Assembly (NCBI GenBank): GCA_000004695.1
Contig: CH709177.1
Location: 1 to 2,149, forward strand
Source: Dictyostelium discoideum
Lineage: Eukaryota
DNA length: 2,149 nucleotides
Direction of reading: 5' to 3'
Shown: positions 1 through 2,149 of the stretch, in pieces
Layout: each line of letters begins with the position of its first letter
Numbering within the stretch: the first letter of the stretch is position 1
Notes under the pieces: model-generated
Told to the model about the DNA's origin: nothing
What the model saw: the letters and a program-made list of their open reading frames with translations, nothing else
Database searches by the model: none
Translations under genes and position numbers: made by a program

Positions 1-227
<227 letters not shown>

Positions 228-244
<17 letters not shown>

Positions 245-925
245 ATTGGAAGAGGAGAGAAAACAAGAACAAAAGAAAAAGAAAGAATTGGATGATCAAG
301 AATGGAAGAGAAAGGAACAACAATATCAATCTGATCTTCAATTGGAAAAAGAGAAACAATCTGCATTAGAGTTGGAACGTGAACGTGAAATTCAATCAAT
401 TCTTGAATCAGAGAAACAACGTCAACAACAAGTTGAACTTGAAATTCAACAAGAAAAAGAAAGAACCAAACAATTACAACAACAATGGGAACAAGAGAAA
501 TTGAAATTGGAAGAGGAAAGAAAAGGATTGGAAAATAAAAAATCATTGGAAATGGCTCAAAAGAAACAAGAACTATTAGAGTTAAATAAAAAGATTGAAC
601 AAGAACAACGTGATCTAGAAGAACGTATTCAAAAAGAACAAAAAGAAAAAGATCAAAGAGAAAAGCAAGATCAATTGGCTCAAATGGAATTAGAAAGAGA
701 AAGAGAAAGAGAAAAAGAAGAAAAAAAGAGAAAACAACAACAATTGGCTCAATTAGAAAAAGAAGAAAGAGAAAGAAATGAAAAACTTGAAAAAGATAGA
801 CAATTACAATTAGAACAAGAAATTGAAAAAGAAAGAAAATTAAAACAACAACAAAAAGAAAAAGAACAAAAAGAACAAAAAGAAAAAAGAGAACAAAGAG
901 AAAAAGAAGAACAAAAATCAAAAGA
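228..925 (+). repeat. Tandem direct repeat copy 1 of a ~700-bp coiled-coil module. Its partner is 1209..1906 (period 981 bp).
   Basis: By-eye alignment shows 698 bp identical except 527 g / 1508 a and 665 g / 1646 a. The two copies are separated by a 283-bp segment (926..1208) that contains the junction motifs, the (AAT)n tract and the N-rich/acidic segment. Confidence 0.9.
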
Positions 926-965
926 AATGTTTGTTGATCAATTGGAACACCAAATAAAAATGTAA
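234..965 (+). CDS. Coiled-coil E/K/Q/R-rich repeat protein ORF (tandem copy 1). It has no ATG start: the frame opens directly after the TGA at 210..212, and the track's start at 234 is a TTG. Possibly a headless or pseudogenised copy, or part of a larger frame-shifted gene.
   Basis: ORF-track frame is open 213..962 with stop TAA at 963..965. The translation is a long low-complexity coiled-coil: LEEERKQEQKKKKELDDQEW...LEREREREKEEKKRKQQQLAQLEKEERERNEKLEKDRQLQLEQEIEKERKLKQQQKEKEQKEQKEKREQREKEEQKSKE, then MFVDQLEHQ from a second copy of the unit-start motif, then IKM*. Codon usage is typical of AT-rich amoebozoan genes. Internal ATGs are only at ~551 and ~683. Confidence 0.5.
905..953 (+). repeat. 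Junction element J (unit-end aaagaagaacaaaaatcaaaagaa + unit-start aatgtttgttgatcaattggaacaccaa), occurrence 1. Occurrence 2 is at 1172..1226 with 4 extra nt (gata). Inverted partial copies lie at 2..21 (unit-end) and 198..225 (unit-start).
   Basis: Exact shared strings were found by inspection: 24 nt unit-end and 28 nt unit-start in both direct occurrences, and 20 nt plus 27 nt in the inverted occurrences that flank the kinase fragment. Confidence 0.85.
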
Positions 966-975
966 AGAATAATAA

Positions 976-1006
<31 letters not shown>

Positions 1007-1210
1007 GGAAATAATAATACTACTTTAATAAATACTGAAAATAATAATAATATAACTAAATTTGATGACGACTCAGAAAAAGAATCTGAAGAAGAACCAA
1101 AGCCAATTATCATAAAAGAAGAACCAAAAATAGTTTCAGTTAAAGTTGAATCCAAAAAGGTCGTCGTTAAAGAAGAAGAACAAAAATCAAAAGAAGATAA
1201 TGTTTGTTGA
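938..1210 (+). CDS. Asn-rich / acidic coding-like segment in frame +2 (no ATG). Possibly a linker exon of a larger repeat protein whose reading frame is broken at both flanking junctions.
   Basis: Frame 2 reads SIGTPNKNVKNNKYNNNNNNNNNGNNNTTLINTENNNNITKFDDDSEKESEEEPKPIIIKEEPKIVSVKVESKKVVVKEEEQKSKEDNVC and stops at TGA 1208..1210. Segment 1061..1199 is less AT-rich and looks like coding sequence. The other two frames are full of stops here. The segment is bounded by unit-start motif 926..953 and unit-end motif 1172..1195. Confidence 0.3.
978..1006 (+). repeat. (ATA/AAT)n trinucleotide microsatellite, ~9.7 units. A shorter (AAT)4 lies at ~1040..1051. In frame 2 it encodes poly-Asn.
   Basis: ataataataataataataataataataat is read directly from the sequence. 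Poly-Asn tracts of this kind are characteristic of dictyostelid coding regions (established knowledge). Confidence 0.9.
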
Positions 1211-1940
1211 TCAATTGGAACACCAATTGGAAGAGGAGAGAAAACAAGAACAAAAGAAAAAGAAAGAATTGGATGATCAAGAATGGAAGAGAAAGGAACA
1301 ACAATATCAATCTGATCTTCAATTGGAAAAAGAGAAACAATCTGCATTAGAGTTGGAACGTGAACGTGAAATTCAATCAATTCTTGAATCAGAGAAACAA
1401 CGTCAACAACAAGTTGAACTTGAAATTCAACAAGAAAAAGAAAGAACCAAACAATTACAACAACAATGGGAACAAGAGAAATTGAAATTGGAAGAGGAAA
1501 GAAAAGAATTGGAAAATAAAAAATCATTGGAAATGGCTCAAAAGAAACAAGAACTATTAGAGTTAAATAAAAAGATTGAACAAGAACAACGTGATCTAGA
1601 AGAACGTATTCAAAAAGAACAAAAAGAAAAAGATCAAAGAGAAAAACAAGATCAATTGGCTCAAATGGAATTAGAAAGAGAAAGAGAAAGAGAAAAAGAA
1701 GAAAAAAAGAGAAAACAACAACAATTGGCTCAATTAGAAAAAGAAGAAAGAGAAAGAAATGAAAAACTTGAAAAAGATAGACAATTACAATTAGAACAAG
1801 AAATTGAAAAAGAAAGAAAATTAAAACAACAACAAAAAGAAAAAGAACAAAAAGAACAAAAAGAAAAAAGAGAACAAAGAGAAAAAGAAGAACAAAAATC
1901 AAAAGAGAAAAACAAGATCAATTGGCTCAAATGGAATTAG
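1200..1940 (+). CDS. Coiled-coil E/K/Q/R-rich repeat protein (tandem copy 2), with the ATG at 1200 lying inside the unit-start motif ([15 protein letters not shown]...). The ORF track begins it at TTG 1146.
   Basis: Frame 0 is open 1146..1937 with stop TAG 1938..1940. The first in-frame ATG is at 1200..1202 in an A-rich context (aagataATGttt). The protein is identical to copy 1 except G->E at one position (527 g vs 1508 a). The C-terminus KNKINWLKWN* results from an out-of-frame junction into the third partial repeat at ~1906. Confidence 0.5.
   Translation: MFVDQLEHQLEEERKQEQKKKKELDDQEWKRKEQQYQSDLQLEKEKQSALELEREREIQSILESEKQRQQQVELEIQQEKERTKQLQQQWEQEKLKLEEERKELENKKSLEMAQKKQELLELNKKIEQEQRDLEERIQKEQKEKDQREKQDQLAQMELEREREREKEEKKRKQQQLAQLEKEERERNEKLEKDRQLQLEQEIEKERKLKQQQKEKEQKEQKEKREQREKEEQKSKEKNKINWLKWN
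1209..1906 (+). repeat. Tandem direct repeat copy 2 of the coiled-coil module.
   Basis: See copy 1. The offset of 981 bp is a multiple of 3, so both copies are in the same reading frame. Confidence 0.9.
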
Positions 1941-2149
1941 AAAGAGAAAGAGAAAGAGAAAAAGAAGAAAAAAAGAGAAAACAACAACAATTGGCTCAAT
2001 TAGAAAAAGAAGAAAGAGAAAGAAATGAAAAACTTGAAAAAGATAGACAATTACAATTAGAACAAGAAATTGAAAAAGAAAGAAAATTAAAACAACAACA
2101 AAAAGAAAAAGAACAAAAAGAACAAAAAGAAAAAAGAGAACAAAGAGAA
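1808..2149 (+). CDS. Frame +2 open reading frame that continues the coiled-coil repeat (third, partial copy) to the window end. It is 3'-partial and the first ATG is at 1931.
   Basis: The last frame-2 stop is TGA 1805..1807. From 1904 the frame reads REKQDQLAQMELEREREREKEEKKRKQQQLAQLEKEERERNEKLEKDRQLQLEQEIEKERKLKQQQKEKEQKEQKEKREQRE, identical to copy-2 residues, because 1902..2149 duplicates 1636..1883 with a 266-bp (= 2 mod 3) offset. Confidence 0.3.
1902..2149 (+). repeat. Nested partial third copy. It duplicates 1636..1883 (and therefore 656..903) at an offset of 266 bp and runs off the window.
   Basis: The sequence from aaagagaaaaacaagatcaattggctcaaatgg to the end matches 1636..1883 base for base. 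The junction lies at ...aatcaaaaga|gaaaaacaag, and the internal site is preceded by the near-identical gatcaaaga (microhomology). Confidence 0.85.

Follow-up and report, generated by a model that had tools for sequence, protein, structure and literature searches.

An Asn-rich and acidic coding-like fragment between recurring boundary sequences in a Dictyostelium discoideum contig, most likely part of a non-functional chimeric concatemer

Positions 1 to 2,149 of contig CH709177.1 from Dictyostelium discoideum (assembly GCA_000004695.1), a stretch of 2,149 nt that is called here the window, contain a piece of Asn-rich and acidic coding-like DNA, the cargo, enclosed between two boundary sequences, J-start and J-end, that also enclose pieces of quite different content. 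What is this cargo and how did it come to lie between boundaries that it shares with unrelated neighbours? Is it a gene, a cassette, a spacer or an accidental fragment? The window is AT-rich, with a purine-rich plus strand, and is built of five pieces: an inverted kinase fragment, a first copy of a coiled-coil unit, the cargo, a second copy of the unit and a partial third copy. The patchwork is most likely a chimeric concatemer, non-functional, and neither a gene nor a functional cassette. As judged from its frames and codons, the cargo is most likely a coding-looking, start-less internal piece of low-complexity protein sequence, which has no stop of its own and belongs to neither neighbour.

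Coding character and relatives of the cargo

The cargo peptide, NKNVKNNKYNNNNNNNNNGNNNTTLINTENNNNITKFDDDSEKESEEEPKPIIIKEEPKIVSVKVESKKVVVKEEEQKSKEDNVC (also written NKNVKNNKYN(9)GNNNTTLINTENNNNITKFDDDSEKESEEEPKPIIIKEEPKIVSVKVESKKVVVKEEEQKSKEDNVC), begins with an Asn tract and continues as an acidic stretch rich in Lys and Val. Its frame, frame 2, is the only one of the plus strand that is open over 954-1171, where it contains no stop, as against 6 in frame 3 and 25 in frame 1. An earlier note on this DNA, made from its letters alone, had described the segment as open only in frame 2, which is right for the plus strand and not for the DNA as a whole, where one antisense frame is open as well. 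It had also remarked on the absence of a start codon, and indeed there is no Met in the cargo peptide and no in-frame ATG, GTG, TTG or CTG. The frame is bracketed by a TGA inside each flanking J-start (935-937 and 1208-1210). In Markov-1 simulations the any-frame probability of an open plus frame over 954-1171 was about 4e-4, and the openness of the 1061-1171 half by itself was not significant (0.33).

The coding-likeness of the cargo is evident along its whole length, both in the phase of the Asn codons and in codon usage, so that the view that it is not simply an intergenic spacer has been borne out. Frame-2 phase holds for all four AAT runs and for 21 of the 23 AAT triplets, and the interruptions are whole codons, hence the half with 92% AT behaves as an Asn tract and not as a spacer. 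Part A of the cargo behaves as coding DNA because this phase is kept through the four runs and is also that of part B. Within part B (1061-1171) G occupies 46% of first codon positions and 0% of second ones, and a codon model built on the kinase fragment and the coiled-coil unit prefers frame 2 by 20-26 log-likelihood units. The shift in base composition that had been noticed inside the cargo is real, an AT-rich half being followed by 69.8% AT at 1061-1199, but the AT content of 966-1060 is 91.6% and not the ~95% first given. The limits of the cargo also required a small adjustment: the J copies that had been recognised there are exact, and their positions place the foreign interior at 953-1174, 1-3 nt off the earlier coordinates.

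These data bear directly on a simple duplication of a gene in tandem, with a period of 981 nt, in which an AT-rich intergenic spacer at 966-1060 would be followed, at 1061-1199, by the end of an upstream open reading frame (ORF) or by a leader of the next copy. Such an arrangement would agree with the position of copy 2 of the coiled-coil unit, which lies exactly 981 nt downstream of copy 1, with the AT content of the supposed spacer, with the stop of the copy 1 ORF at 963-965 and with the ATG at 1200 that opens copy 2. It is nevertheless hard to credit, because the Asn-codon phase is kept over four runs and into part B, the period is seen once only, with an inverted kinase fragment upstream and an internal jump downstream, the upstream ORF would run over the next ATG, with an overlap of 11 nt, and the presence of the same ends on the kinase piece is left unexplained.

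Two other readings of the cargo were tried and rejected. An intron could begin only with GTAAAG (962), for which the next AGs (1076 and 1082) lead to immediate stops, and frame 2 remains open from end to end. The six stops of frame 3 in 954-1171 are all TAA or TAG, and a ciliate-type genetic code would open frame 3 over 234-1940; this code is contradicted by the coiled-coil unit, all 46 Gln codons of which are CAA and which has no in-frame TAA or TAG, and frame 3 itself would be poly-Ile.

The earlier statement that the cargo is unrelated to the coiled-coil body was confirmed: BLASTP found no similarity to the coiled coil or to the kinase fragment, and BLASTN gave only low-complexity words of at most 10 nt. 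The same note had counted a lack of any similarity of the frame-2 peptide, together with absence from transcripts, as a point against its reading. No relatives came to light at E ≤ 0.1 among 5.8 billion protein clusters when the cargo was searched alone, and a composite query of cargo and kinase against the same collection yielded no match to the cargo part. No family was assigned from Pfam, PHROG or NCBIfam, AlphaFold2 predicted neither secondary structure nor a fold for the cargo peptide (predicted template modelling score, pTM, 0.16), and a 41-mer of cargo DNA had 0 matches in viral, prokaryotic-genome and metagenome collections. The cargo is thus neither a gene nor a known domain. Its sequence is new, being unmatched in every collection searched, and no new kind of system is required.

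One article describes Asn-rich homopolymer tracts as common in dictyostelid-type proteomes (PMC13093961). The cargo is similar to the tracts described there, as it has long AAT-encoded runs with whole-codon interruptions, is in phase with a flanking ORF and belongs to a very AT-rich genome; unlike dictyostelid-type Asn-tract proteins, the cargo peptide matches no dictyostelid or other protein.

Boundary sequences and the joins between pieces

The argument for a concatemer begins with the two boundary sequences. J-start, AATGTTTGTTGATCAATTGGAACACCA (27 nt), is found in exact copies at 926-952 and 1199-1225 and, as its reverse complement, at 198-224; another copy, at 227-244, lacks the first 9 nt. 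J-end, GAAGAACAAAAATCAAAAGA (20 nt), is exact at 906-925, 1175-1194 and 1887-1906 and, as its reverse complement, at 2-21. Chance matches expected by shuffling are 0 for J-start and 0.17 for J-end. The two sequences are the ends of the coiled-coil unit, J-start being its opening 27 nt, ATG included, and J-end its closing 20 nt, and the unit measures exactly 708 nt from the ATG to the last codon, in frame and with no stop at its end. Each module runs from J-start to J-end on one strand and one module is inverted. Identity to the boundaries breaks off at the same nucleotide across three unrelated interiors: next to ...GGAACACCA of J-start stand GACTAT in the kinase module, ATTGGAAG in the coiled coil and AATAAAAATG in the cargo, and just ahead of GAAGAAC... 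of J-end stand AAATCAG, GAGAAAAA and GTTAAAGAA in the three module types. With lengths of 27 nt and 20-23 nt, the boundaries have nearest-neighbour melting temperatures of 58 and 46-50 C.

The pieces meet in several ways (Table 1). J-end runs straight into J-start at 925/926, with no filler, and is separated from it by an AGAT filler at 1194-1199, while at 198-244 two J-starts stand head to head, the right-hand one without its 9 nt and with 1-2 nt of filler. The last arrangement folds into a hairpin (dG −18.7 kcal/mol, z −7.5), at which a scan for RNA genes and tRNAs gave only sub-threshold, miRNA-like Rfam hairpin noise. The join of copy 2 to copy 3, at 1907, is out of frame, uses an internal site of the unit and shows an imperfect microhomology of 8-9 nt, ATCAAA(A)GAG (1897-1915 vs 1631-1650). 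Reading frames end near the joins, copy 1 with IKM and a stop at 963-965, the cargo at the TGA and copy 2 with KNKINWLKWN and a stop, and the translations of the window in its frames contain no long ORF across any join. There is thus no translatable reading that would unite the pieces.

Table 1. Pieces, boundary copies and joins of the window
Feature	Positions	Strand	Remarks
J-end copy (GAAGAACAAAAATCAAAAGA)	2-21	-	3' terminus of the inverted kinase module, 1 nt from the start of the window
NDR/Cbk1-type protein-kinase C-lobe fragment	22-197	-	fragment only; out of frame with its own J-end
J-start copy	198-224	-	kinase-frame reading NVC-TGA-SIGTP; TGA at the NDR activation-loop Ser position
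Head-to-head J-start/J-start join	198-244	.	perfect 18-bp hairpin, 11-nt loop
Coiled-coil unit copy 1	227-925	+	truncated J-start 227-244, body 245-905, J-end 906-925
J-start copy	926-952	+	directly abuts the preceding J-end; frame 3 passes the join, then stops at IKM-stop
Cargo part A	953-1060	+	Asn tract in frame 2, 91.6% AT (966-1060)
Cargo part B	1061-1174	+	acidic/Lys/Val-rich coding-like stretch (FDDDSEKESEEEPKPIIIKEEPKIVSVKVESKKVVVKE), frame 2
J-end copy	1175-1194	+	EEQKSK in the cargo frame
4-nt filler AGAT	1195-1198	+	between J-end and J-start; absent at 925/926; shifts the frame
J-start copy	1199-1225	+	TGA 1208-1210 ends the cargo frame; coiled-coil frame begins with ATG 1200
Coiled-coil unit copy 2	1200-1907	+	708 nt, in frame, ATG to last sense codon
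Partial coiled-coil copy 3	1902-2149	+	identical to 1636-1883; out of frame at its join with the J-end of copy 2

How could such an arrangement have been formed? The account preferred here, to which we give an even chance of being right, is that the patchwork is an end-to-end concatemer of linear pieces with primer-like ends and that the cargo is an internal fragment of an unrelated gene. Linear units, each running from J-start to J-end, would have been joined end to end in either orientation. Because the termini are of oligonucleotide length, the unit starts with ATG and closes in frame without a stop, the breakpoints are identical, and fillers and losses are small, we infer that the products were primed from two oligonucleotide-length sequences and subsequently ligated; the primer-like strings named for this account are AATGTTTGTTGATCAATTGGAACACCA and TCTTTTGATTTTTGTTCTTC. 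The intended product would be the coiled-coil ORF. Off-target or copy-choice products must be assumed as well, since three different interiors share the termini, and the kinase piece and the cargo would be such products of the same two sequences. The S-I-G-T-P reading of J-start may represent the 3'-end similarity that allowed priming on a kinase gene, and annealing on a GAA-repeat may explain why the J-end that follows the cargo is read in phase as EEQKSKE. All this may have taken place in vitro, as a chimera of amplification, of the library or of assembly, or in a chimeric read that does not depend on the assembler, or else in cells, through concatemerisation of introduced DNA.

The window has the features of such a product: its units reach the same two termini with an abrupt stop of identity, and terminus is joined to terminus with a few nt of filler or loss, the join at 1907 being the exception. 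The end-to-end ligation of linear donors made by polymerase chain reaction (PCR) into concatemers is a documented outcome (10.1101/841098). Similarly to those concatemers and to the blunt mis-integrations reported with them, the window has units that end within a few nt of the same termini, little unexplained sequence and truncated units (10.1101/841098). It differs from PCR-donor concatemers in having three different interiors and one microhomology join, and in that no donor or experiment is known.

The sharp and exact repeats around three unrelated interiors, one of them inverted, together with the overlapping palindromes in J-start, could also be expected of a genuine cassette-exchange system, in which J-end/J-start would be a functional recombination or priming boundary for the swapping of unrelated coding segments. 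We consider this very improbable, as the junction has no significant secondary structure, the two boundaries do not form an inverted pair, the interiors are truncated fragments that lack a start and are closed by stops, the window contains no recombinase or other machinery, and the boundary was found nowhere else, neither in the collections searched nor in the relatives of the kinase. Hardly more can be said for the proposal that the 47-51-nt J-end/J-start junction is a functional boundary of an AT-rich eukaryote, at which unrelated coding fragments, in this case a piece of a kinase exon and the Asn-rich/acidic segment, would be copied or exchanged into a tandem coiled-coil array at fixed breakpoints by cassette shuffling or programmed templated insertion. 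A search for recombination-site-like structure at the J-end/J-start junctions found none, the folding being weak (z −1.5 and −3.0, −5.3 and −8.3 kcal/mol), and the inverted repeats of the window include no pairing of J-start with J-end. A J-start 24-mer had 0 matches in viral, prokaryotic-genome and metagenome contigs, and neither the J strings nor the peptide strings were found in the searchable literature.

The earlier note had drawn a parallel between the cargo and a kinase cassette. What stands of this is that both lie between the same J boundaries; a meaningful cassette cargo is unsupported, since the cargo has no start, a TGA on both sides, no homolog, family or fold and no site-like junction, J-start is absent from the collections searched and from the kinase loci of relatives, and no long ORF crosses a join. 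Cassette exchange is the only reading that would be important if true, and it is an unlikely one.

Known systems with recurring boundaries lead to the same comparison. Like integron cassette arrays, the window presents unrelated promoter-less coding segments parted by a recurring boundary; unlike them, it has no attC-like imperfect inverted repeat or hairpin, its interiors are fragments, one of them is inverted, and the kinase is of the eukaryotic NDR type. No integrase-like ORF is present in the window, and the whole window had no match among plasmids and phages. Gene capture by Pack-MULEs and Helitrons likewise places unrelated gene fragments between constant terminal sequences, but the termini of the window measure 27 and 20 nt, are not mutual inverted repeats and merely mark where a coding ORF begins and ends, and the inverted module does not have the geometry of a target-site duplication. 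On reading of the sequence, Helitron-type ends (5'-TC...CTRR-3') were not evident at the boundaries.

J-start (933-945 and the other copies) holds overlapping palindromes, TTGATCAA, TGATCA (a BclI site) and CAATTG (an MfeI site), which may have arisen by chance or may hint at an engineered or oligonucleotide source. Two motifs similar to J-end lie inside the cargo, GAAGAAGAACCAAAGCCAA and AAAGAAGAACCAAAAATAG (1088-1106 and 1115-1131; compare the J-end region 1172-1190), and their peptides, EEEPKP and KEEPKI, resemble the EEEQKS of J-end. Sequence of the J-end kind is therefore common in such low-complexity coding DNA.

The kinase fragment and the activation loop

The inverted piece (22-197, minus strand) is of the NDR/Cbk1 type. 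It has a Pfam Pkinase match and a gap-free alignment with STK38 and Cbk1, and it shares 79-85% identity with fragments of uncultured eukaryotes; no relatives were found in viral contigs, and neither a DFG motif nor a kinase N-lobe is present in the window. The TGATCA of its J-start (208-213, minus strand) puts a TGA on the phospho-Ser of the activation loop, as is seen when LAFSTVGTPDY of STK38 is set against NVC-stop-SIGTPDY of the window, and from upstream the kinase fragment is unreadable for this reason. In the relatives the equivalent of the J-start region reads ...KRKRR..A[YF]S[TN]VGTPDY. All those with readable context are basic just upstream (WKAQRRVLAYS, WKRKRRLL-VSS, WTKKRREM-VYS and WKRKRRVEADS, as compared with QKSKEDNVC-stop in the window) and contain neither an Asn-rich or acidic insert nor a J motif; no J motif was found at the kinase loci of relatives. 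J-start would hence seem not to be native to the kinase, given the TGA at the Ser position, the out-of-frame J-end and relatives without J.

Two distant relatives of the kinase (L001, ~2405-2463, and L005, ~3997-4046) are interrupted by an intron immediately ahead of V-[YS]-S-[NT]-V-GTPDY. This shared intron position is at most 3 nt from the point where identity to the J-start of the window begins.

One may ask whether the cargo was once an insert in the activation loop of the kinase. The NDR-type kinase could have carried, in the order cargo, EEQKSKED, NVC(S)SIGTPDY and kinase, an expanded native insert of low complexity that was later split by coiled-coil repeats. The cargo frame, the EEQKSKE of J-end and the NVC-stop-SIGTP of J-start are all in phase, owing to the 4-nt filler, and J-start is gap-free against A-F-S-T-V-G-T-P of NDR kinases and shares V-x-S-x-V with two relatives; with a shift of 1 nt, TLPKI followed by EE resembles TLPKIMEE of P0001. 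The cargo is like the activation-segment insert of NDR/LATS kinases (STK38, Cbk1) in that its frame leads in phase into ...SIGTPDY, the conserved segment after the insert. It is unlike that insert in having no basic autoinhibitory stretch, in the TGA at the phospho-Ser and in its position, which is not next to the kinase piece. Every J-start copy has an in-frame TGA where the essential Ser should stand, and all relatives whose context is visible show a basic ...WK(R/K)KRR... just upstream, without any Asn-rich or acidic insertion. What comes after the cargo in the window is the coiled coil rather than the kinase, the J-end past the kinase is out of frame, and the ATG of J-start also opens the coiled-coil ORF, which continues as a good coiled coil. 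A native kinase insert is therefore improbable.

End-joining against natural rearrangement

The coiled-coil unit is rich in Lys, Glu and Gln and its ORF is present in about 2.35 copies of 708 nt. Within the unit, copies 1 and 2 differ only at 526 and 665, both differences being G/A transitions, and copy 3 is identical to copy 2 and not to copy 1, as it carries the copy 2 allele. One of the differences changes Gly to Glu (GGA/GAA) and the other is silent (AAG/AAA). A word-based search for homologs of the coiled coil was saturated and gave no match, and an exhaustive HMMER search of 1.84 billion representatives returned 0 matches.

Several observations weigh against the origin by priming and end-joining that is preferred here. 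No second copy of any module was found in the collections searched, so that it is the architecture alone that speaks for a technical or introduced-DNA origin. The direct join of J-end to J-start is in frame and could equally be a native junction of tandem coiled-coil repeats; in a comparison of the J-end/J-start junction with internal paralogous repeats, z was 2.1, 1.7 and 1.0 against shuffles. Translated in the kinase frame, J-start gives V-C-stop-S-I-G-T-P, colinear with V-[YS]-S-[NT]-V-G-T-P of the relatives, and this likeness exceeds what a pure primer artefact needs. The join of copies 2 and 3 is mediated by microhomology and is not blunt, the two putative oligonucleotides are rather unlike in melting temperature, and the two differences between the coiled-coil copies also fit real paralogous copies.

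The main rival is a natural complex rearrangement. According to this explanation a coiled-coil gene with 708-nt units in tandem would recently have received templated insertions, in the manner of fork stalling and template switching or microhomology-mediated break-induced replication (FoSTeS/MMBIR) or by short-arm recombination, an inverted kinase exon piece and an Asn-rich/acidic piece having been copied from other loci to give a non-functional mosaic. It is the less likely of the two. The coiled-coil copies are nearly identical, with the differences at 526 and 665 and the copy 2 allele in copy 3, the 925/926 join is in frame, the copy 2/copy 3 join has 8-9 nt of microhomology, the window ends at repeat boundaries, as happens when an assembler breaks at real repeats, and one AT-rich codon style is common to all pieces. 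On the other hand, two independent insertions must then begin and finish at identical nucleotides of the unit, and the foreign pieces bring their own J-start and J-end in their own orientation. Nor would a target-site duplication solve this difficulty, as it fits the cargo (J-end+J-start / cargo / J-end+J-start) and fails for the inverted kinase module.

FoSTeS and MMBIR are replication-based processes that produce complex rearrangements with templated insertions. The window is similar to their products in that short segments from other loci, direct or inverted, lie in a duplicated region, with microhomology at 1907. Such rearrangements are normally free of exact breakpoint reuse, in contrast to the window, where both foreign pieces begin and end at identical nucleotides.

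A misassembly in a De Bruijn graph at a shared motif was thought unlikely, since the motifs are shorter than a typical final k and the contig repeats 700 nt identically.

What would follow from either origin? A technical concatemer would call for a flag on the contig, lest the kinase fragment, the coiled-coil "tandem repeat" and the orphan peptide enter annotations as real genes or as a new modular element. A genuine rearrangement would make the window a compact case in which several foreign gene pieces were inserted at the same breakpoints of a repeat unit, and this would be of modest interest for the mechanisms of repair and replication in AT-rich genomes.

Two minor observations concern the window as a whole. 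Its ends, positions 1 and 2149, lie 1 nt beyond one J-end and 3 nt short of the next, and this closeness of both to J-end boundaries suggests that the repeated boundary sequence is where the contig or read broke off or ended. Four ORF products of the window have no record in an exact-protein index. The antisense frame that is open over the cargo belongs to an F/L/V-rich ORF of 559 amino acids (223-1902, minus strand), which runs through the cargo and both coiled-coil copies and is not recorded as a gene product. Gene callers could be misled by this ORF, which merely shadows the purine-rich coding strand.

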